Source: Candidatus Pacearchaeota archaeon (GTDB lineage Archaea > Nanobdellota > Nanobdellia > Pacearchaeales > UBA284). Taken from it: a stretch of DNA of 64,000 bases. The translations under genes and the position numbers were made by a program. Position 1 is the stretch's first letter; the number at the start of each line of letters is the position of its first letter. This document shows, piece after piece, positions 20,730-60,237 of the stretch. The notes under the pieces were generated by a model, which was not told the origin of the DNA, made no database searches, and saw only the letters and a program-made list of their open reading frames with translations. The DNA lies in contig JBNAVB010000001.1 of assembly GCA_049699715.1 (NCBI GenBank), positions 808 through 64,807 of the forward strand, written 5' to 3'.

Positions 20730-20838
20730 GGGCCTGTAGTTCAGCGGTAGAATGCCTCCCTTGCACGTGAGGGAAGTGTCCCTTCACAACTCTCACTAAG
20801 AACGGAGGAGGTCGTGGGTTCGATTCCCACCGGGTCCA
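20730..20838 (+). tRNA. tRNA-Ala(TGC) with a 37-nt intron after position 37; no encoded CCA
   Basis: Acceptor GGGCCTG/CGGGTCC with the G3:U70 alanine identity pair, anticodon loop CTTGCA|intron|C, T-arm GTGGGTTCGATTCCCAC. Intron spans about 20766..20802. Confidence 0.85.
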
Positions 20839-47463: not shown

Positions 47464-47587
47464 GCCGCGATGGCCCAATGGTAAGGCGCAGGTTTGCTAA
47501 AGAATCTTTTTAGAAAAAAGATTCTATCAAAAAATGCAAACAACCTGTTTCCGAAAGGATATCTGGGTTCAATTCCCAGTCGCGGCG
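47464..47587 (+). tRNA. tRNA-Ser(GCT) with a ~42-nt intron at the canonical 37/38 site and a long variable arm
   Basis: Acceptor GCCGCGA/TCGCGGC, anticodon stem CAGGT/ACCTG with loop TTGCTA|intron|A, variable-arm hairpin TTCCGAAAGGA, T-arm CTGGGTTCAATTCCCAG. Confidence 0.75.
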
Positions 47588-51065: not shown

Positions 51066-51956
51066 CTAGTTTTCAACAGGAAGGTTTCCCAATTCTAAAA
51101 TATTTATGTAGGTTTTGCCATCCCCTCTTTCATAGCCACCATCTGCTGTTCTTTCCAGTTTTCTGATAACCATCCTAACATATAAATTATCCCAACCATT
51201 AACCCATTTTGAGAAAGTTCTGTCAATGCTCGCGCCTGGAGGAATGCTCGCCGAGCCTCTCACACCCTCTTCACCTTCTTCACATTCATCTTCTGTGTTG
51301 CCGTCACTAAATTTGATTTCAGAATATGGCAAGGTGAAATGACCCTCTGATACATTCCTAATAGTAGTAAAAACATATAATTTCCATCCCATATAATCCC
51401 CGCCAACGCGGCTGCTGATGAACTTCTCTCTTTGTAAATGGTAGTCACGAATCATAAATTCGAGGTCGCCAGCGTTCGCCCATTCGCCCACATTATAATA
51501 ATTCGTTGCCGAGTACTTGTAATCCTCACGAGATTCTTCTTGTACTTGCTCTTGCCTTTGTTCTTGCTTATATGTTGGCTGTTCTTCTTTTTCTTTCTTC
51601 TGAATTTTCACTTGTATTTGTTCATCTTCAGTTATTTTTTGAGGTGTTGATGGTTGTGAATAATGTTCTGTAATATTCGATTTTCCTTCCTCTGCTTTTT
51701 TATGGGGAATGTAAAGAGTATAATAACACAAGGCAGCAGCTAAACTTAATGTCATTAAAGCCCCAACCAACCAATTCCTTGGGGCATGGCTTTTTTTGGG
51801 TAAATGTATTAATGACTGTGACAGTTGACTCCCACTTTCGGGGATTTCTGAGCTGCCCTTAGTTTTATCTAGAAGAGTCTTGGCTTCTTCGCTAGTAATT
51901 TTGCCTTCTTCAAGAAGTTTTAGAATCTTGAATTTTAAATCTTTCTCATTAGCCAT
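51066..51956 (-). CDS. Single-pass membrane protein with N-terminal SHOCT-like motif and C-terminal beta-rich extracytoplasmic domain
   Basis: KFKILKLLEEGKITSEEAKTLLDK (SHOCT-like), TM helix LVGALMTLSLAAALCYYTLYI, Gln/Glu-rich linker, C-terminal ~150-aa beta domain. Confidence 0.4.
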   Translation of the reverse strand: MANEKDLKFKILKLLEEGKITSEEAKTLLDKTKGSSEIPESGSQLSQSLIHLPKKSHAPRNWLVGALMTLSLAAALCYYTLYIPHKKAEEGKSNITEHYSQPSTPQKITEDEQIQVKIQKKEKEEQPTYKQEQRQEQVQEESREDYKYSATNYYNVGEWANAGDLEFMIRDYHLQREKFISSRVGGDYMGWKLYVFTTIRNVSEGHFTLPYSEIKFSDGNTEDECEEGEEGVRGSASIPPGASIDRTFSKWVNGWDNLYVRMVIRKLERTADGGYERGDGKTYINILELGNLPVEN

Positions 51957-52049
51957 TTAAACATAAAAATAAAGAAATTTATAAATATTTATATACAAAA
52001 ATATACAAAAAACTTTAAATACAATAGTGTTATTAAAGAGGTATATAAA

Positions 52050-54194
52050 ATGACAAAGATAACCAAGACTTTTTTGATTTTACCCTTGTTTTTCATATCG
52101 CTATTACTTATCAACTTGGCATCTGCCACGATTATCTTGTCAAATGTCAACCCCATATACAATCTTGGCGACATGATAAAGCTCGAAGCTAAAGTTTCAA
52201 GGGCAGAGGCATTTTCTGGCTTCTTCCGCATAGGACTCTTCTGCAATAACACAGAAACTTTAATGTACTTCTCGCCAATAGATCTTGTCAAGAACAAAGA
52301 AAAGGCTATCACAGTTAATTTTCCTGTGGCCAAAACAGGATCTTGTTATATATCCGCGACACTTGAAGATAATTATAACACAAAAATAGAGGAAACTAAA
52401 ACTCCAACAGTTTCTCTTAGTAATAAAATTAATATCGTGCTAAATGTTAATCAAAATGAGTTCGAACCTAAAGATAAATTAGAGCTCAGTGGCACAGCAA
52501 CTAAAGAAAATGTCCAGGCAGCAAGTGGAATAGCAACAATAACTCTCAGTCAAGGTAAAGATTATAGCTCAAGTGTCCCGAATGGAAAGATTTCTTTCTC
52601 GCTAGATTTGCCTGCAGACATAGCTCCGGGCCAGCATCAAATAACAGTAAGCATCAAAGACAATAACAACAATCAAGGCACTGCAGCTATAAATATAACA
52701 ATACTTTCTGTCCCAACAACTTTAACAATAGAGACAAACAATGATAGTTTCATCCCTAATTCTTTGCTTATGATAACCCCCAAACTTCTTGATCAGGCAA
52801 ACAACACTTTAGATGCCACGATAACAACGAAACTTTCAAGACAAGTTTCGCTCATAAAAAACGAGAAGCTTCTCGAAGAGTTGATAGCAAGTGGCAACAA
52901 TACTGTTTATAGATTCACAGAATTCAGCCCGCCCGGTGATTATATAATCGAAGCTTCGACAAGCACATCAAAAGGTGAGTTTAATTCAAAGAAAATTTTG
53001 AAAGTTGAGTATTACGAAAAAATCAAAGTCGATTTACAAGGCGACACTTTGTACATTTCAAACATTGGGAACGTGCCTTTCAAACGCGCTATAGAAATTG
53101 AGTTTATGATAGAGAACCAAAGCACAAAAAAAGTTATTGACTTGGATTTAAAGATAAATGAGAACGCGACTTTCAAGCTCGAAGCGCCAAAAGGAACCTA
53201 CACAATAAAAGTGAATACAGGTTCTGAGATTCTTGAATTCAAAAGCGTGCCATTGACAGGCTATGTTGTAGCAACAATCGAGTTGAACAAGTCACAAAAA
53301 TTAGATTTTAGAGGGTTGGTAGGCTTGGTAGCACTGGCTGTTGTATTGATTGTTATCATGATTCTCTTAAGAACAAGAAGATCACACAAGGAAAAAAAGG
53401 GGATAATCAAGATGATGAAAAATAATGGCCAAGAATTTCCTATAGCTGCACACGCAACAACTGGAAATCTGATAGCATCCGCTAAGCTAGACCACTTTGC
53501 TTCGGGCGATGTGACACTGAAGAAGATATTCTTAAGGCACTCCTCAAAACTCGCAGCGGACAAGATTGTCTCGACAATAGTCTATGGGACAAAACAAGAA
53601 ATAACAGCGTTGTTCGTTCATTTGGGCGTTGATTCCTTAAACGAAATTAAGAAAAAAGATTCCATGACCTACGCAAAAATTTTAGATGAATACTTCAAGG
53701 AAATCACACAGAAAATTAAAGAACATCAGGGAGTCGCGGATTTATATGATAACAACCTGATTGTCTTGTTCAATGTAATCAAGCAATACAGGCATGACAT
53801 TGCCGCGCTGAAGACAGCAGAAGCAATTAAACAAATCACAGAGGAATTGAATAGAGCGTTGGCGCCAAAGGGCGTTAAGATTGGAGTGTGCGCAGGCATC
53901 AATACTGGCTTGGCAAACGTCACAAACATTCAAAATGGCACAGTAAAATATACTGCTATAGGCAATACAACTTCCTTGGCAAGGGCATTACAAGCAAAAG
54001 CGTGCGCAGGCGAGATATTGTTCACAGAAAAAGTTTATGACCGCGTTGCTAATGTAATCAAAGCAAGGAAGATGCAACCACATTACTTGAGCGAGCAACA
54101 AGCAATTAATATATACTCATTACAAGACGGTATGAAAGCAGAGCTACGAAACAAGAATCAGTGGTACATCAGGCGAGCTCTAGGAAAAGGTTAA
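52050..54194 (+). CDS. Receptor-like membrane protein: signal peptide, ~420-aa extracellular repeat region, one TM helix, cytoplasmic class III nucleotidyl-cyclase-like domain
   Basis: Signal LILPLFFISLLLINLASA; TM LVGLVALAVVLIVIMILL; cytoplasmic GVKIGVCAGINTGLANVTNIQNGTVKYTAIGNTTSLARALQAKACAGEILFTEKVYDRV parallels the cyclase-homology core (IGIHTGPVVAGVIG...Y.V.GDTVNTASRME..A.PG.I.VSE.TY). Confidence 0.5.
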   Translation: MTKITKTFLILPLFFISLLLINLASATIILSNVNPIYNLGDMIKLEAKVSRAEAFSGFFRIGLFCNNTETLMYFSPIDLVKNKEKAITVNFPVAKTGSCYISATLEDNYNTKIEETKTPTVSLSNKINIVLNVNQNEFEPKDKLELSGTATKENVQAASGIATITLSQGKDYSSSVPNGKISFSLDLPADIAPGQHQITVSIKDNNNNQGTAAINITILSVPTTLTIETNNDSFIPNSLLMITPKLLDQANNTLDATITTKLSRQVSLIKNEKLLEELIASGNNTVYRFTEFSPPGDYIIEASTSTSKGEFNSKKILKVEYYEKIKVDLQGDTLYISNIGNVPFKRAIEIEFMIENQSTKKVIDLDLKINENATFKLEAPKGTYTIKVNTGSEILEFKSVPLTGYVVATIELNKSQKLDFRGLVGLVALAVVLIVIMILLRTRRSHKEKKGIIKMMKNNGQEFPIAAHATTGNLIASAKLDHFASGDVTLKKIFLRHSSKLAADKIVSTIVYGTKQEITALFVHLGVDSLNEIKKKDSMTYAKILDEYFKEITQKIKEHQGVADLYDNNLIVLFNVIKQYRHDIAALKTAEAIKQITEELNRALAPKGVKIGVCAGINTGLANVTNIQNGTVKYTAIGNTTSLARALQAKACAGEILFTEKVYDRVANVIKARKMQPHYLSEQQAINIYSLQDGMKAELRNKNQWYIRRALGKG

Positions 54195-54256
54195 AAGGTT
54201 AAAAAATCCCTATTAGTTTAACAATATCAATAATAAAAAGAGGAAAAAGAAAGAAT

Positions 54257-55207
54257 TTGAAAGGAGGTAATGAAATGGAAAATAATATTTTTTGGGCATT
54301 TTTAGCAGTTACTTTTATTGTAGGATTAACTTTAGGAATTGCAATATATGGGTTGCCTGCAGGAATAACAGGCAGAGCCGCATTCTTTCCTTTTACTCCA
54401 GCAATAAATTGTAATGACACTGATGGGATTAACCTTGCTGTCAAGGGAGCATGCATAGATCCCTATGGGACAAAAACAGATGTCTGTTCCAGCCCGACTA
54501 ATCTAGTAGAGTATTGGTGCATGAACGGGACAAACATAAGCTATTGTGTATCGCAAGTATATAATTGTGTTAGTTATGGTTATACAGGCTGTTATGATGG
54601 TGCTTGTGTTGGTAGCAACAAATCTCAAGCTGCGACGGGAAGCGTCAGTGGCGTGCCAGCGACGCCAGCGACAAGTGGTTTTGGCGGATCTGCAGAATCT
54701 ATGCAAATATATAATTATGTAACTACACAAAGTTCTCAATTATTTCATTGTGGTTTAACAAATGATTTCAGTCTTGATAGTGAGCATAGCATCTTCCATT
54801 TATCAAAATGTGATAGAGCAATATTTAGTGACGGGAACAGAAGAAAAGAGGTGACTCTCCATGGGGTCTATTTTGATACTATGCATAGGAAATTTGTAGC
54901 CCATATACAATATAAGTATTTTTTAGATGATGTGCTATGTACAGAAGAAGATATTCTAAGCGGAACGGAAGACAGTGGATTTGCAGTGGATATCCTTGAA
55001 ATCAGATCAAAACTAACAAATAGCGGAGAGTCCATCCAGATGGTCCTGGCAACAATTCCTGATAATGTTTTCGCTGATTCTTGCTTTAATACTGTAGGGA
55101 CTTTAGGAAGTGGTGGGATGAACGGAAGATATGTCATTGTAGATGATGAAGTAACGTGTCAAAGTGGTGGTTGGCAATGTAAATGTGAAGAATCTTCTGC
55201 AAGATAA
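54257..55207 (+). CDS. Secreted cysteine-rich protein with Ser/Thr/Gly/Ala linker
   Basis: N-terminal hydrophobic signal/anchor, a Cys-dense module (12 Cys within ~90 aa), an SQAATGSVSGVPATPATSGFGGS linker and a C-terminal globular part ending in a Cys-containing motif. Confidence 0.4.
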   Translation: MKGGNEMENNIFWAFLAVTFIVGLTLGIAIYGLPAGITGRAAFFPFTPAINCNDTDGINLAVKGACIDPYGTKTDVCSSPTNLVEYWCMNGTNISYCVSQVYNCVSYGYTGCYDGACVGSNKSQAATGSVSGVPATPATSGFGGSAESMQIYNYVTTQSSQLFHCGLTNDFSLDSEHSIFHLSKCDRAIFSDGNRRKEVTLHGVYFDTMHRKFVAHIQYKYFLDDVLCTEEDILSGTEDSGFAVDILEIRSKLTNSGESIQMVLATIPDNVFADSCFNTVGTLGSGGMNGRYVIVDDEVTCQSGGWQCKCEESSAR

Positions 55208-55226: not shown

Positions 55227-56150
55227 TTATTTTTTCAATTCTCTTAGCAACAAGCATGCTTTGCACAAGTCATGAGAAGAAGCAAAGCCGCATTTCTTGC
55301 ATTTTTTGAACTCAGTATCCTTAAATTTTTCTTTGATTAATGGCATTAGCTTGAGAAATGAATTGACTATCGCGTTTTTTATCTCTACATGTTTCTTGTC
55401 CATCTCATCAAGAAAATTCCTTATCTCTATCCTGAAAGTTTCGCCGCGCGAAGGGCAAGTTGCTATCTCTTTCTTTGGAATAGGCAAATTCTTGAGCTTG
55501 GCATAACACATTATTTCTTGTGTAGAGCAAAGGTAAAATGGTTTCACGCGTTGAACAAAAGCTTTAGTTTCTTGAGTGCCTGCCTTTGGCCCTAGCTTTG
55601 CTAAAAGCTCACTGTTGCCCTTGAAAATATTGAGCAAAATGTTCTCTGCCTCATCGTCAAGAGAGTGAGCTGTCGCAATGACATCAAACTTCAGCTCTTT
55701 AGCTTTCTTGTTGATCAACCATCTTTTCAATATTGAGCAAACCGCGCAATTGCTCAATTTCATCTTTTCAATTTTATTCTGAACTCTCTTGTCGCCAAGA
55801 TTAAACCCAAACTCTTTTTTGAATGTAAAAATTTTGAGAGAAATCCCTAAATCTTTACAGAGTTTTTTACTGTCTCTTAACAAATTTTTCCTGTAATCTC
55901 CGATGCCTTCATCAACCATCAATGCCTCGAGCTTCTGGCCTCGTTCTTTGCAGAATTTCGTTAGGATATAAAGTAAAACAATGCTGTCCTTGCCGCCAGA
56001 GAAGGCCACAGCAATTTTGTTTTTCTTGTTAATGAGCTCATACTTGCGAATTGTATAAAGGACTTTTCTCTCGAAATATTTGATGAACTCGATGGCATCA
56101 AGCCATCTTCCACAGCTTAAGAAATGAACCCTCTTGCCATGCTTTCTCAT
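55227..56150 (-). CDS. PP-loop ATP pyrophosphatase family protein (TtcA/TtuA/NcsA-like tRNA thiolation enzyme)
   Basis: PP-loop VAFSGGKDS, C-terminal CKKCGF...CKAC zinc/Fe-S ligand pairs, internal CAVC pair; 307 aa. Confidence 0.55.
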   Translation of the reverse strand: MRKHGKRVHFLSCGRWLDAIEFIKYFERKVLYTIRKYELINKKNKIAVAFSGGKDSIVLLYILTKFCKERGQKLEALMVDEGIGDYRKNLLRDSKKLCKDLGISLKIFTFKKEFGFNLGDKRVQNKIEKMKLSNCAVCSILKRWLINKKAKELKFDVIATAHSLDDEAENILLNIFKGNSELLAKLGPKAGTQETKAFVQRVKPFYLCSTQEIMCYAKLKNLPIPKKEIATCPSRGETFRIEIRNFLDEMDKKHVEIKNAIVNSFLKLMPLIKEKFKDTEFKKCKKCGFASSHDLCKACLLLRELKK

Positions 56151-56164
56151 TTTTTACTGCCCAA

Positions 56165-56386
56165 TTACCTGACTTCCTTGATGCTTATAATGTTTACTGG
56201 GCATATGTCCGCGGCTTCCTTGTTACACTTGTATTCTTTTGCTTCGATTAAAGTTTTCCTTGGCTTGGCTTTGCCGTCGCTGCCTATTACCCAGTTCTCC
56301 CCACAGACAGATACGCATGCACCACAGCCAATACATTTCTCGTGCTCTTGAGTGATTTTATATTTTCTGTTCTTTTTGATTTCCAT
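56165..56386 (-). CDS. Small [4Fe-4S] ferredoxin
   Basis: CIGCGACVSVC...C(N)KEAADICP cysteine pattern; 73 aa; immediately downstream of the PP-loop gene. Confidence 0.55.
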   Translation of the reverse strand: MEIKKNRKYKITQEHEKCIGCGACVSVCGENWVIGSDGKAKPRKTLIEAKEYKCNKEAADICPVNIISIKEVR

Positions 56387-56397
56387 TTTATTAAATT

Positions 56398-59300
56398 TTA
56401 TTGACTATATTTATTATTCCCATTTAATTCTGTTATTTCGACCACTTTAGCAAGATCAGTGACTTTGTCATCAGGCCTGAGCCTTATTATTCTAACGCCC
56501 TGAGTAGCTCTGCCCATTACTCTAATATCCTTACAAGGGACTCTTATGACCATTCCTTTAGATGTCGTAACAATCCCAGAATCCTTGTCGTTTACAGACA
56601 CAGTTGTAACAACTTTGCCTGTTTTGTCTGAGATTTTCAAGTTGATTACGCCTTTGCATGCTCGGCCTGTAAGCCTGTAATCCTCAATTGCGCTTCTTTT
56701 GCCGTAGCCTTTTTCTGTGATTGTGAGAATCGTGCTTTTCGGGTCATCAAGAACCTCGAGAGAGACAACTTCATCACCTTTCTCGAGCTTTATTCCTGTC
56801 ACTCCATAACTCGCACGGCCCATTGTTCGAACTTCATCAGAATTGAACCTTATTGCCTGGCCCTCTTTTGTTACAAGAATTACTTCCTGCTTCTCTTTTA
56901 TTGGCTTGACATCAATGACAACATCCGAACCATCTAGAGGCAAATTAATAACACGAACCCCGGAAGCCCTTGGCTTGCTTAGGAGCGAGAGATTCATTTT
57001 TTTAACTTGCCCTTTCTTTGTGACAATCATCAAAAAGTCTTTGAACTCTTTAACAGCCATCACGCTCTGTATTGTTTCATCTTTCAAATTTAAAATGTTG
57101 ATTAATGCCTTGCCTTTGCTATATTTCTCGACAGCCGGAATATAATACGCTTTAAGCCAGTACACTCGGCCTTTGTTTGTGAAAAATAATAAGTAATCAT
57201 GAGTTGAGCAAGTTATTATTTGTTTCACGAAGTCGCCTGTTGCGAGGTCAGAACCAATGACACCCTTACCGCCGCGCTTCTGCTCCTTATAATCCTTGAC
57301 GTCAATCCTTTTACAGTATCCTTTGTCTGTGATTGTTATAACAACATCTTTCTTGCTGATTATGTCTTTTTCCTGGATTTCAGCGATTCTTTGTAAAATT
57401 TGTGTTCTTCGGGCATCGCCATATTTCCTCTTTAGCTCTGAAACTTCTTTCTTGATGACATTCAAGATTTCCTTGCCGCTAGAGAGAATTTTCTCAAGCT
57501 CTTTAATCAATTCTCTCAATTTCTTTTCCTCATCTTTGAGCTTGTCTTGCTCCAAGTTAGTCAGGCTGCTGAGCTTCATGTCAAGGATTGCCTGCGCTTG
57601 CTTGCCAGTCAACGAGAACTTTTTTAAAAGTGACTCATAAGCTTCGGTTGTATTCTTGCTCCCCTTTATTAATTTGACAACAGCATCAATGTCCTTGAGC
57701 GCAATTAACAATCCTTGGACTATCTCCCTTCGCTCCTGGGCTTTCTTCAGTTCGAATTTTGTTCTTTTTGTAACAATAACCTCGCGATATTTGACATATT
57801 CCTCAATCAAGTTCTTCAGATTTAATTGCTTTGGATGCCCTTTCACGAGAGCAATCATGTTTACGTCAAAATTGTCCTGGAGCCTGGTGAATTTGTAAAG
57901 CCTGTTGAGCGTGAACTTGTAATCTGCACCTTTTCTTAATTCTATGACAATACGCACTTTTCCTTTGGCACTTTCATCGCGCAGATCCCACACGTCAGGG
58001 AGCTTCTTCTCCTGGATTAATTTCGCAATGTCTTTGACGAGCTCGGCCTTATTAAGCATGTAAGGGATTTCTGTGATAATAATGCTTGTTCTGCCTTTGT
58101 GTTCTTCTGTCGTGGTCTTTCCTCTTAAGATGATGCGGCCTTTGCCTGATTTATAAATCTCCAAGAAGTTCGCGTTTGCTTGGCCCCCTGTCGGGAAGTC
58201 AGGGCCGATTATTATTTCTGAAAGTTTTTCTATAGTTATATCTGGATTATTAATGTAAGCATTGATAGCGTCACAAACTTCGCCCAGGTTGTGCGGCGGC
58301 AAATTCGTAGCCATGCCAACTGCGATGCCTGTTGCGCCGTTGATTAGTAGATTTGGAAGTTTCCCGGGCAGAGTTTCTGGCTCTTCGAGTGAATTGTCAA
58401 AGTTTTGCAAGAACTTGACAGTTTCTTTGTCAATATCCTCGAGAAGCTCAGCTGATATTGCAGCTAGCTTTGCTTCCGTGTATCTCATTGCTGCTGGCGA
58501 GTCTCCATCCATTGAGCCGAAGTTCCCTTGCCCATGAACTAAAGGATAACGCAACGAAAAATCCTGGGCCATTCTCACGAGTGCGTCATAAATTGCCATG
58601 TCGCCATGAGGATGGAATTTGCCCATACAATTGTGAGAACGCATTCCATTTGCCAAAAATTCATGCTCTTTCTCAACCTGGATATCGTAAGTGATTTCTG
58701 GTTTTGCTCTCTCTACTTTTTTTACTTCAACAAAAAAGAAATCATTTTCTAGAATTGGTTTTAATTTTGCGGCCAACGGAGAACCGATTCTCTTAAGTTT
58801 TTCTAAAATATTTAGTTTCTTGATAGTGCTTTTGTATATTTTTATTTTGTTTTTCAAGCCTTTATAATATCTAATTTTTGTTCCATTTTCATATTTGATT
58901 CCTAATCTGAATTTTTTTCCATTGACATCTTTATACCAGCCTCCCCCAAGATGTTTTTCTGAAAATTCAGAAAATATTGCGCTACCAAAGTAGGGAAGGA
59001 TATCAAATTGTGAAGGATTTACTTTTGTTTTTATTTTCAAGAGCCTTTCCTTTTTTTGCTCATTGGACAAGTTAAGGTTATCTTTTAGAGATTGTATACT
59101 GCTTCCACAGATTTCTAGAGAGTATGTTTCGAAATTAGGTTTTATTATTCTTCCCTTGTATGAATGATTTTTCTTTTTGTTTCTGTACTTCCTAGAAAAT
59201 ATTCCTAACGAGAACAGCAACGTTTGCAAGCTATCAATAAACTTTTCAGATATTGATGTGATGTTGATTACTTTTCTATTTTTATGCACAAAACCATCTC

Positions 59301-60237
59301 CATCTATAATACCTGAAAGAAATGCAAAAATAACAGATTTTGGCGATTTTGATATTGTTTCTGGAACTTTAATGTTGTATGCTTTTTTATCCATAATATC
59401 AAATAAAGACAAAAATCTTTTTGAATAATCTGTGCTGTTCAATCTAATTAAATAACTGTTGTTTTTAATACAAATATTTTCATTAGTGTCGAATTCTTTT
59501 TGGAATATTTTTTGTATTTTATTAATTACACTTTTACAATTATTCTGAATTGATAGCCTCAAATACTCTTTTTTTCTGTCTATCCATCCATCAGACAAAA
59601 ACATTCCAAGAAGATAAGCAAGGTTTTCATTGATAACAATTCCATTCCTTTTAACATATTTATTTATCTTTGGATATGTTCCTTGGAGTACCAAATAAAC
59701 TCCCTTTTTCAATTCAGAGGCCTTCTTCCATTCAAATTTGAGATCTTTTGTAAGAACCATATACATTTGCCCTTTAGTAGAAGTGTTAGAAGAGCCATTT
59801 TTTAGTGTGACTTCAACTAGCTCTTGCTTGGGCATAATGTATAATTTGGTTATTTTTCTTATCCCGTTCGAAGTGAATACCCTGTCTCCTTTTTTTAATT
59901 TTTGAATAGGAATAAGCCCTTTTGGTGTAGAGACTAGTGTATCTTTTACAAAACATTCACCTACGATTCTAGCACTTTTCTTTGTCTGCCCTTTCTGCAA
60001 GCCCATCAAATCCATTGAATACAAGATTCTACGTTGAACAGGCTTCAATCCATCTTCGACTGCAGGCAATGCTCTCGAGACTATGACACTCATGGCATAA
60101 TCAATGTAAGCTTTTTTCATCTCGTCTGAGATTTCTGAATCAATCTGCCCTTTTTCCTTTTCCTCTCCCATTTCTTCCCCCTCTTCTGTCTCTTCCTTCT
60201 TTGTTTCTTTTTCTTTCTTCTCTTCTTTTTCGGCCAT
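56398..60237 (-). CDS. gyrA: DNA gyrase subunit A interrupted in-frame by a large intein
   Basis: Extein: ...KSARIVGE | [39 protein letters not shown] (GyrA active-site region), long C-terminal beta-pinwheel. Removing residues 95-536 restores a ~837-aa GyrA. Confidence 0.85.
58630..59955 (-). mobile_element. GyrA intein (~442 aa) with embedded LAGLIDADG homing-endonuclease domain
   Basis: Begins with Cys directly after ARIVGE, ends ...GMRSHN followed by extein +1 Cys. Internal motifs [14 protein letters not shown] and [12 protein letters not shown]; inserted where canonical GyrA reads ARIVGDVMGKYHPHGD. Confidence 0.75.

Follow-up and report, generated by a model that had tools for sequence, protein, structure and literature searches.

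Among the closest known systems are the class IIIb cyclases of bacteria, exemplified by CyaB of Pseudomonas aeruginosa (3r5g), CyaC of Spirulina (1wc0/1wc1) and Cya2 of Synechocystis (2w01). Eukaryotic single-pass receptor cyclases (trypanosome GRESAG4/ESAG4, 1fx4; the animal membrane guanylyl cyclases) have active catalytic domains and ectodomains unrelated to the one described below; their architectural likeness to it is convergent. A class III-like domain without catalytic function has been solved before, in an ATP-binding, class III adenylyl cyclase-like protein from P. aeruginosa (PDB 6yii); this one is bacterial and soluble, forms the N-terminal part of a transcriptional regulator and has neither an ectodomain nor a transmembrane (TM) helix. 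Degenerate GGDEF domains that act as receptors or scaffolds (FimX, 3hva) belong to a different family and offer a conceptual analogy only. Class III cyclases have rarely been predicted in archaea (PMC8646023), and a literature search on DPANN or Pacearchaeota class III cyclases, or on pseudo-cyclases, found nothing specific.

Single-pass receptor cyclases also exist in DPANN archaea, as a family of their own in which the ectodomain is macroglobulin (MG)/Ig-like. P0082 (identical to MBS3118786.1/HLC80288.1, Woesearchaeota/Nanoarchaeia), P0085, P0087 and P0089 are full-length homologues of a Pacearchaeota protein encoded in the 64-kb window, the whole stretch of DNA analyzed here, and share with it a signal peptide, an MG/Ig-like ectodomain with the Y37/G40/C65/C99/NxGN residues, a single TM helix and a C-terminal cyclase-homology domain (CHD). 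They are annotated as cyclases and, unlike the window receptor, retain all six canonical catalytic residues, have a charged linker of 65-96 aa and lack a C-terminal helix; their genomic contexts differ as well. Compared with the bacterial class IIIb enzymes, the window receptor is missing the two metal-binding Asp residues, the substrate-specifying Lys, the transition-state Asn/Arg pair and the Arg of the phosphate loop, and it carries an extra C-terminal helix and other N-terminal modules.

Organization of the receptor locus

The features of the locus are listed below with the evidence for each.

51066..51956, minus strand: conserved divergent neighbour, membrane-anchored protein (Pfam profile, synteny)
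51957..52049, no strand: divergent intergenic region, 93 bp, AT-rich (TATA-like elements, read by eye)
52050..54194, plus strand: gene for the putative pseudo-cyclase receptor, 714 aa, type I membrane protein (ORF list, full-length AF2 model)
52050..52127, plus strand: signal peptide, residues 1-26 (hydrophobic helix 4-21 in the AF2 model; cleavage site inferred between ASA and T)
52128..53255, plus strand: ectodomain of four tandem MG/CARDB/Ig-like beta-sandwich domains (AF2 model)
53307..53381, plus strand: single TM helix, residues 420-444 (AF2 model)
53382..53510, plus strand: cytoplasmic linker, residues 445-487 (pLDDT 30-42; weak conservation)
53511..53543, plus strand: pre-domain helix, residues 488-498, KKIFLRHSSKL (AF2 model, alignments)
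53562..54122, plus strand: degenerate class IIIb CHD, residues 505-691 (profile, alignment, structure)
54144..54185, plus strand: clade-specific extra C-terminal helix, residues 699-712, ELRNKNQWYIRRAL (AF2 model, clade comparison)
54275..55207, plus strand: variable downstream neighbour, TM-anchored Cys-rich protein with 15 Cys (start codon analysis, synteny)

The receptor is recorded at NCBI as a 'hypothetical protein' of Ca. Pacearchaeota (MGB9707764.1), and its full-length AF2 model has a pLDDT of 83. Annotation of the family is inconsistent: some MAGs list its members as 'hypothetical protein', others as 'adenylate/guanylate cyclase domain-containing protein'. An NCBIfam search with the receptor and its neighbours returned no meaningful match. 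The layout proposed in the preliminary description (signal peptide, extracellular region of ~420 aa, one TM helix, cytoplasmic tail of ~270 aa) is borne out by the ORF and the model. The basic cluster RTRRSHKEKK directly follows the TM helix and, by the positive-inside rule, places the roughly 270 residues beyond it in the cytoplasm. The tail begins with a linker that is probably disordered, shows only 4-35% identity between orthologues and ranges from 52 to 151 aa across the degenerate clade; this variable tether replaces the charged linker of the intact forms (61-96 aa). The pre-domain helix aligns with the F-x-R/K-Y-V-x-P helix ahead of canonical class IIIb domains. Beyond the CHD the degenerate clade has 22-30 residues versus about 12 in intact cyclases, reflecting the gain of a C-terminal helix missing from the intact relatives.

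The four sandwiches of the ectodomain (residues 27-117, 121-218, 222-319 and 325-402, all-beta in the AF2 model) resemble the MG domains of alpha2-macroglobulin, complement C3-C5 and CD109 and the archaeal CARDB domains (3idu), a likeness that at the sequence level is marginal and, in the window protein, lies under the Pfam gathering score. Unlike the MG proteins, the receptor has no thioester, bait or CUB regions and only four tandem domains. A sequence search of the PDB with the ectodomain as query gave no match. A full-length alignment with 16 relatives defines Y37, G40, C65, C99, N338, G340, N341, P380 and Y384 as invariant in the family, and the window receptor carries the family signature (Y-N-L-G-D, the paired Cys and the N-x-G-N-V-P motif).

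Upstream of the receptor gene, and always divergent from it, lies a gene whose product is secreted or anchored and shares a conserved domain at its C-terminus. In the window its product consists of a SHOCT-like N-terminus (29.7 bits, GA 27), a TM segment, a K/E/Q-rich linker and an extracytoplasmic, beta-rich 'GEW' C-terminal domain, in agreement with the SHOCT-like anchored protein described previously, and positional homologues occur in L004, L005, L007 and L008. The intergenic region presumably holds the promoters of both genes; TATA-like elements such as TTTAAATA were read by eye about 30 nt upstream of the receptor's ATG at 52050. The downstream Cys-rich protein exists as previously described and is TM-anchored; its start, formerly placed at TTG 54257, is probably ATG 54275, preferred because of a GGAGGT Shine-Dalgarno sequence and the match to the N-termini of homologues. 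Pfam searches with the 'GEW' and Cys-rich proteins of five genomes identified no family. The suggestion of a cell-surface sensing locus is supported only in part: the upstream surface gene is constant, the Cys-rich gene is confined to the closest relatives (L003, L004, L005), and the genes farther out have housekeeping roles (ThrRS, PP-loop ATPase, ferredoxin, GyrA/B).

Catalytic positions of the cyclase-homology domain

The preliminary description had proposed a membrane protein of receptor type whose cytoplasmic part contains a class III cyclase-like domain, to be verified by profile and structure comparisons; these, together with the residue analysis, uphold it. Against PF00211 the tail alone scores 22.1 bits, just above the gathering threshold of 21.9, over profile positions 6-174 of 183, while the full-length protein (19.9 bits) falls slightly under it; 14 of 17 family members match. 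An hhalign comparison of the degenerate-clade profile with the canonical cyclase profile gives an E value of 8e-39. The predicted domain (pLDDT 84) has the beta-alpha-beta-beta-alpha-beta palm-type fold and superposes on solved class III cyclases, 1cs4, 3uvj, 6pas and 6yii being among the PDB matches in the comparison. As for a GGDEF diguanylate cyclase, neither a PF00990 match nor the GG[DE]EF signature was found.

Within this retained fold, five of the six canonical catalytic residues are gone, with the same outcome from three independent alignments (phmmer, MAFFT and hhalign). The first metal Asp (F-x-D-I-x-G-F-T, end of beta1) is replaced by H524 and, across orthologues, by H, S, T, P, E, R, K, L or N; the second (G-D, beta2-beta3 turn) by N568, the position being N, S, G or R in nearly the whole clade. 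The substrate-specifying Lys, four residues ahead of the second Asp, falls in a clade-wide one-residue deletion after D564, and the transition-state Asn and Arg (helix alpha4, N-x-A-x-R-L-E) are S642 and A646, with a basic residue, R645, one position ahead of the lost Arg. The beta1-alpha1 phosphate loop is likewise one residue shorter, without the phosphate Arg of DIRGFT and without the GFT motif. The sole survivor is T635, in K-Y-T-A-I-G, which aligns with the Thr of the canonical E/D-Y-T-A-I-G-D; this second substrate-specifying residue is Asp in class IIIa and Thr in class IIIb. Because the substituted positions vary among orthologues, they do not make up a new conserved catalytic constellation. 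The conserved positions belong mostly to the fold core (G513, G561, F574, A586, A590, G616, G620, Y634, L647, I656), together with some lysines.

D528 (GVDSL) and D567 (YDNN), within the motifs VHLGVDSL and YDNNLIV where the metal-binding residues had been tentatively placed, were rejected as ligands, since all three alignments speak against them and neither is conserved: the true positions are H524 and N568, and D567, beside the latter, is mostly G in the clade. H524, D528, D567 and N568 all lie close to the former site in the window protein and could in principle contact a metal; none is conserved in orthologues. The earlier suspicion that the domain might be degenerate or non-catalytic accords with the residue check. 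With five of six canonical residues missing, a working cyclase is unlikely, and we infer that the window receptor has lost cyclase activity.

The domain may still bind nucleotide, since K633 (in 89% of the clade) and a K/R at 645 are conserved basic positions close to where the nucleotide once bound. It could then serve as a non-catalytic sensor in which occupancy of the old cleft by ATP or a cyclic nucleotide is the signal, in the manner of 6yii. This seems unlikely given the shortened phosphate loop with its missing Arg and GFT motif, the absence of both phosphate-bridging metal ligands and the deletion of the base-reading Lys; moreover, sequence comparison of 6yii with the receptor family detected no similarity.

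Less probable still is an active nucleotidyl cyclase using non-canonical residues, with His524, Asp567 and Asn568, for example, as metal ligands. Mn2+ or Mg2+ can be ligated by His, Asp and Asn, DPANN enzymes can tolerate radical active-site changes (PMC8204694), and NCBI names the orthologue P0242 'adenylate/guanylate cyclase domain-containing protein'. However, orthologues have S, T, P, E or other residues in place of H524 and G in place of D567, neither the substrate Lys nor the transition-state Asn/Arg pair is present, and deeper members of the clade stand at 0/6; purifying selection must therefore target something other than these residues.

Class III heterodimers with one degenerate site, each subunit giving a complementary half-site, are well established, as in mammalian C1/C2 and soluble guanylyl cyclase alpha/beta, and such structures are among the matches (1cs4, 3uvj, 6pas). 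That the CHD serves as a regulatory subunit, paired with an intact cyclase encoded elsewhere in the genome, is nevertheless very improbable: it supplies neither half-site (the Asp pair and the Lys/Asn/Arg set are both missing), so that the composite sites would be dead and a partner could only be inhibited. No second CHD was found within the 64-kb window, and the intact relatives belong to other lineages and contexts. The analysis covered these 64 kb of the genome, and a partner cyclase or cNMP effectors may be encoded outside them.

Conservation and origin of the receptor

The CHD is the best-conserved region of the protein, with identities to orthologues of 78, 64, 52 and 55%, against 59, 54, 41 and 42% for the ectodomain. 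Its dN/dS is 0.11 versus 0.21 for the ectodomain in the L007/L008 comparison, the only pair for which, apart from a few short regions, the ratio is usable, most orthologue pairs being saturated at synonymous sites. The tail is present in each of the 18 ectodomain homologues, and the ectodomain was never found without it. Judged from sequence, the tail is not a relic. That it is a functionless stub decaying on a surface adhesin or S-layer-type protein is hardly credible: the catalytic residues are lost and the ectodomain is similar to modules of adhesins and macroglobulins, but the tail is better conserved and has a lower dN/dS than the ectodomain, is confidently modelled, accompanies every ectodomain homologue, and has been retained in genomes of 0.6-0.7 Mb.

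The gene occupies a fixed syntenic slot across six named MAGs, including a complete genome of 710,724 bp, and has been conserved in Pacearchaeota through vertical inheritance. The preliminary description had considered a sensor-TM-cyclase architecture unexpected in a reduced genome; the receptor is no oddity of a single genome. A search of genome contigs with the single receptor protein gave no match; search patterns were derived from an 8-sequence alignment, the 17-sequence full-length alignment being too diverse.

Relatives with the same ectodomain retain six (P0082, P0085, P0087, P0089), four (P0090, P0086) or three (P0067) of the six catalytic residues; the remaining 36 members of the monophyletic clade keep none to two. 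By the orthology test, the intact and intermediate forms lack the synteny of the degenerate clade. The CHD of that clade is still cyclase-like in fold but no longer has the two-metal site, the substrate Lys or the transition-state Asn/Arg pair. The series indicates that one whole order-level lineage turned a receptor cyclase into an apparent pseudoenzyme, with the CHD under stronger constraint than the ectodomain.

Possible functions of the degenerate domain

The explanation we favor, and regard as reasonably probable, is that of a Pacearchaeota-specific pseudo-cyclase receptor whose dead CHD has been kept for holding a dimer and/or binding a cytoplasmic partner. The ancestor would have been a DPANN receptor-type class IIIb adenylyl cyclase of the same layout, from the signal peptide and tandem MG/Ig-like ectodomains through the one TM helix to the CHD; its descendant would make neither cAMP nor cGMP. 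Class III cyclase domains are obligate head-to-tail dimers, which would account for retention of the dead domain, and conservation of glycines in its fold core and arm region is suggestive of such a dimer. As a counterpoint, inactivity is deduced from sequence and DPANN enzymes can survive active-site substitutions: the RNA polymerase of Nanoarchaeum equitans is active despite changes predicted to kill activity (PMC8204694).

Outside the cell, the MG/Ig-like stalk would bind some extracellular ligand, conceivably a host-surface or matrix component in an episymbiotic DPANN cell, possibly together with the divergently encoded surface protein. A more specific version, which we advance only tentatively and hold to be rather doubtful, has the dead CHD taking on a new role as the intracellular output of a Pacearchaeota-specific receptor for host contact, or supporting a new ligand or chemistry on the conserved Lys/Arg. 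Engagement of the stalk, perhaps with the divergent surface protein, would then be relayed through the CHD dimer and the new C-terminal helix to a cytoplasmic partner. If true, a cAMP receptor-cyclase would have given rise, in the course of genome reduction, to a device that signals or anchors without a second messenger.

Host sensing and attachment by DPANN archaea are poorly understood, and the receptor provides a concrete, conserved surface protein as a candidate for the DPANN-host interaction. The progression from 6/6 through 4/6 and 3/6 to 0-2/6 catalytic residues offers a natural system for following a signalling enzyme as it becomes a non-catalytic module.

A membrane receptor with a class III cyclase-homology tail

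The receptor gene (52050..54194, + strand) encodes 714 amino acids. An exact look-up identified the product as MGB9707764.1, which comes from a Candidatus Pacearchaeota MAG and is annotated as 'hypothetical protein'. The full-length AlphaFold2 model, built with 17 family members as input (mean pLDDT 83), shows the following elements:

Residues 4-21: hydrophobic N-terminal helix, then ASA|T
Residues 27-117, 121-218, 222-319 and 325-402: four all-beta sandwich domains (pLDDT about 90)
Residues 420-444: single TM helix, then RTRRSHKEKK
Residues 441-485: low-confidence segment (pLDDT 30-42)
Residues 488-498: short helix
Residues 505-691: alpha/beta domain
Residues 699-712: terminal helix

The succession of N-terminal helix, beta sandwiches, one TM helix and RTRRSHKEKK predicts a type I topology, with the ectodomain outside and a tail of roughly 270 aa inside. 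ORF and model thus match the preliminary description, which had proposed a signal peptide, an extracellular repeat region, one TM helix and a ~270-aa tail.

Taken by itself, the Pfam evidence for a cyclase domain in the tail is borderline: PF00211 scores 19.9 bits with the whole protein and 22.1 bits with the tail alone (gathering score, 21.9), the match covering profile positions 6-174 of 183. Among PDB sequences, phmmer matched Pseudomonas aeruginosa CyaB (3r5g, E=3.7e-8), Cya2 (2w01, 3.7e-5) and CyaC (1wc0, 4e-3). Everything that a three-sequence family profile retrieved from 5.8 billion sequences, down to E=2e-15, was a PF00211 protein, and an exhaustive HMMER search yielded 12,889 relatives at E<=1e-3. 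Alignment of the clade profile with a canonical-cyclase profile (hhalign) gave a probability of 99.96% (E=8e-39). When an AlphaFold2 model of residues 484-714 (pLDDT 84.3, pTM 0.81) was compared with the PDB using Foldseek, all of the top 50 matches were class III cyclases, including 3r5g (E=1.2e-12, TM 0.82). The agreement of these approaches makes fold and homology certain: by descent and fold, the tail domain belongs to the class III cyclase-homology family, as had been proposed from the sequence alone. A GGDEF identity was excluded, no GGDEF profile matching the protein even at E<=10 (Pfam). The domain is class IIIb-like, as shown by Thr at the purine position in the motif Y-T-A-I-G.

Stepwise loss of the catalytic residues

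The residue register was the same in phmmer, MAFFT and hhalign alignments:

Metal Asp1 (F-S-D-I-R-G-F-T): His524
Phosphate Arg of the Asp1 loop: deleted
Substrate Lys: deleted (G-V-A-D-[gap]-L-Y-D-N-N)
Metal Asp2 (G-D): Asn568
Substrate Thr: Thr635, retained
Transition-state Asn: Ser642
Transition-state Arg: Ala646, with Arg645 one position early

The two-metal site, the Lys and the Asn/Arg pair have been lost while the class III fold was kept. One of six canonical residues is left. Of the five residue-level tests of cyclase competence the protein fails four, and it should therefore not be classed as a cyclase, adenylyl or guanylyl. The earlier suspicion of a degenerate or non-catalytic domain was well placed. 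The Asp pair tentatively put forward as metal ligands (D528, D567) had to be discarded, as these residues lie beside the canonical positions and are not conserved in orthologues.

We infer from these alignments that cyclic-nucleotide synthesis by this protein has ceased. Residual catalysis is improbable but conceivable: in N. equitans, also a DPANN archaeon, RNA polymerase is documented to function in spite of 'inactivating' substitutions (PMC8204694). A role as heterodimer partner of an intact cyclase is very improbable: the protein has neither half-site, so that both composite sites would be dead, and no second cyclase-homology domain was found within the 64-kb window.

Word-indexed searches recovered three close relatives only; at E<1e-30 the exhaustive search gave some 20 cluster representatives, most of which were 670-800 aa long and had the domain at the C-terminus. 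The ectodomain alone retrieved 18 proteins, all full-length, and hence was never found without the tail. It is homologous family-wide in the full-length alignment, with invariant Y37, G40, C65, C99, N338-x-G340-N341, P380 and Y384. A residue census covering 54 domains, combined with an NJ tree, gave the following distribution of canonical residues:

6/6: P0082, P0085, P0087 and P0089, relatives with the same ectodomain as the window protein
4/6 (Lys to His, Arg to Lys): P0090 and P0086
3/6 (both Asp kept): P0067
0-2/6: the 36 remaining members of a single monophyletic clade, to which the window protein belongs

The pseudo-cyclase clade is thus derived from intact receptor cyclases, through what reads in the census as a stepwise series of losses. 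P0082 (Woesearchaeota/Nanoarchaeia) is annotated as 'adenylate/guanylate cyclase domain-containing protein'. Within the degenerate clade, the Asp1 position is variable (H/S/T/P/E/R/K/L/N). Residues conserved in at least 80% of the clade are mainly fold-core Gly/Ala/hydrophobic positions common to real cyclases, together with lysines K515, K588, K633 and K674; no replacement catalytic-looking constellation was found among them. The clade's linker (52-151 aa) is variable, less charged and richer in S/T/Q/N/P/G than the highly charged 61-96-aa linker of intact and intermediate forms, and the post-domain extension measures 22-30 aa, with an extra helix, versus about 12 aa in intact forms.

Some relatives deserve separate mention. 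At L012 (165-2153 and 2156-4179), P0090 adjoins HD-domain and HATPase_c proteins, the former possibly a phosphohydrolase or phosphodiesterase; these neighbours hint that the lineage still has a working module for nucleotide signalling. The metagenomic P0003 and P0002 (L001, 1-1200; L002, 1-1301) apparently begin within the last beta sandwich or immediately ahead of it and lack a signal peptide; what precedes them is either stop codons or a HypC-like gene that is unrelated. They are natural short-ectodomain truncations, or else artefacts of assembly or frameshift. NCBI gives the label 'Spirochaetota bacterium' to P0001, the closest partial relative (78% identity; L003, GCA_052746075.1 contig JBRAFO010000333.1). 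Its contig, in which receptor, Cys-rich protein and PP-loop ATPase follow one another as in Pacearchaeota, is probably mis-binned.

Selection and genomic setting

The receptor gene is present in six named MAGs, including the complete 710,724-bp genome CP061211.1. The cyclase-homology domain is the best-conserved region across six orthologues (78/64/52/55/37/53% identity; ectodomain, 59/54/41/42/37/21%; linker, 4-35%). Nei-Gojobori dN/dS, read for the pair of loci whose synonymous sites are unsaturated (L007 vs L008), was 0.11 in this domain and 0.21 in the ectodomain. The tail domain is under purifying selection; it is not the relic of a dead cyclase.

The receptor's position is conserved in these minimal genomes. 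Named MAGs and metagenomic contigs share the order 172-aa protein, ThrRS, divergent surface protein, receptor and variable slot, followed by PP-loop ATPase, ferredoxin, GyrA and GyrB; the contexts of intact and intermediate relatives are unrelated to this slot. The window contains:

51066..51956, - strand: divergent gene, SHOCT-like N-terminus and TM segment
54257..55207 as called, + strand: Cys-rich protein, N-terminal TM anchor, 15 Cys
55227..56386, - strand: PP-loop ATPase with C-terminal zinc ribbon, TtcA/Ncs6-like tRNA thiolation type
56398..60237, - strand: GyrA, 1279 aa, intein with LAGLIDADG homing endonuclease (Pfam Intein_splicing, LAGLIDADG_3, Hom_end)

The proposal of a cell-surface locus is partly supported on the upstream side. 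The receptor's divergent neighbour invariably codes for a protein that is secreted or anchored, in the window as in L004 (3380-4435), L005 (3304-4470), L007 (3661-4518) and L008 (3465-4493; all - strand). These homologues share only a C-terminal beta-rich 'GEW' domain, which no Pfam family fits; their N-terminal anchors differ (SHOCT-like plus TM in the window, signal or lipoprotein-like elsewhere). Outside the cell, the 'GEW' protein could be a partner of the receptor. Downstream the proposal is weak, the Cys-rich gene occurring only in the closest relatives (L003, L004, L005; absent in L001, L007, L008 and L009), where conservation is confined to the N-terminal roughly 115 aa. Its start is probably ATG 54275, which has a GGAGGT Shine-Dalgarno sequence 7 nt upstream and is consistent with homologues beginning MEN..FW.

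The PP-loop ATPase and a small single-cluster 4Fe-4S ferredoxin form a conserved pair beside the receptor at most related loci. GyrA orthologues in L004-L009 are intein-free (815-850 aa), indicating that the intein is a recent or sporadic acquisition in the window lineage. The window is archaeal by content: its 16S-23S operon is archaeal, its ThrRS has an editing domain of archaeal type, and some of its tRNAs contain introns. Two Rfam tRNA genes (20730..20838 and 47464..47587, both + strand; one in the 16S-23S spacer) are 109 and 124 nt long, implying introns; ARAGORN reported only tRNA-Pro and tRNA-Thr and missed both.

A putative role for the retained domain

Class III domains work in head-to-tail pairs. 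For this reason the most plausible role of the retained domain would be to keep the receptor dimeric and/or to present a surface for binding by a cytoplasmic partner, perhaps with the aid of the new C-terminal helix. The MG/Ig-like stalk would bind an external ligand. DPANN cells are generally thought to be host-dependent, and an attractive idea is that the putative ligand is the host surface. Single-pass receptor cyclases of trypanosomes and animals have a similar architecture but an unrelated ectodomain. Degenerate GGDEF receptors and 6yii offer parallels in the dead-domain concept.

Within the literature library searched, no paper on DPANN receptor cyclases or on this pseudo-cyclase clade was found. 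Public annotation of the family is inconsistent ('hypothetical protein' in some MAGs, 'cyclase domain-containing' in others). Overall, the observation made in the preliminary description is confirmed and its interpretation supported, with the corrections noted. Archaea are regarded as seldom having class III cyclases (PMC8646023); intact DPANN homologues of the receptor are already annotated in public records, and the window receptor itself would not be an active archaeal cyclase. Its significance lies in being a strongly conserved pseudoenzyme receptor, maintained in minimal genomes, whose stepwise path of degeneration can be traced.
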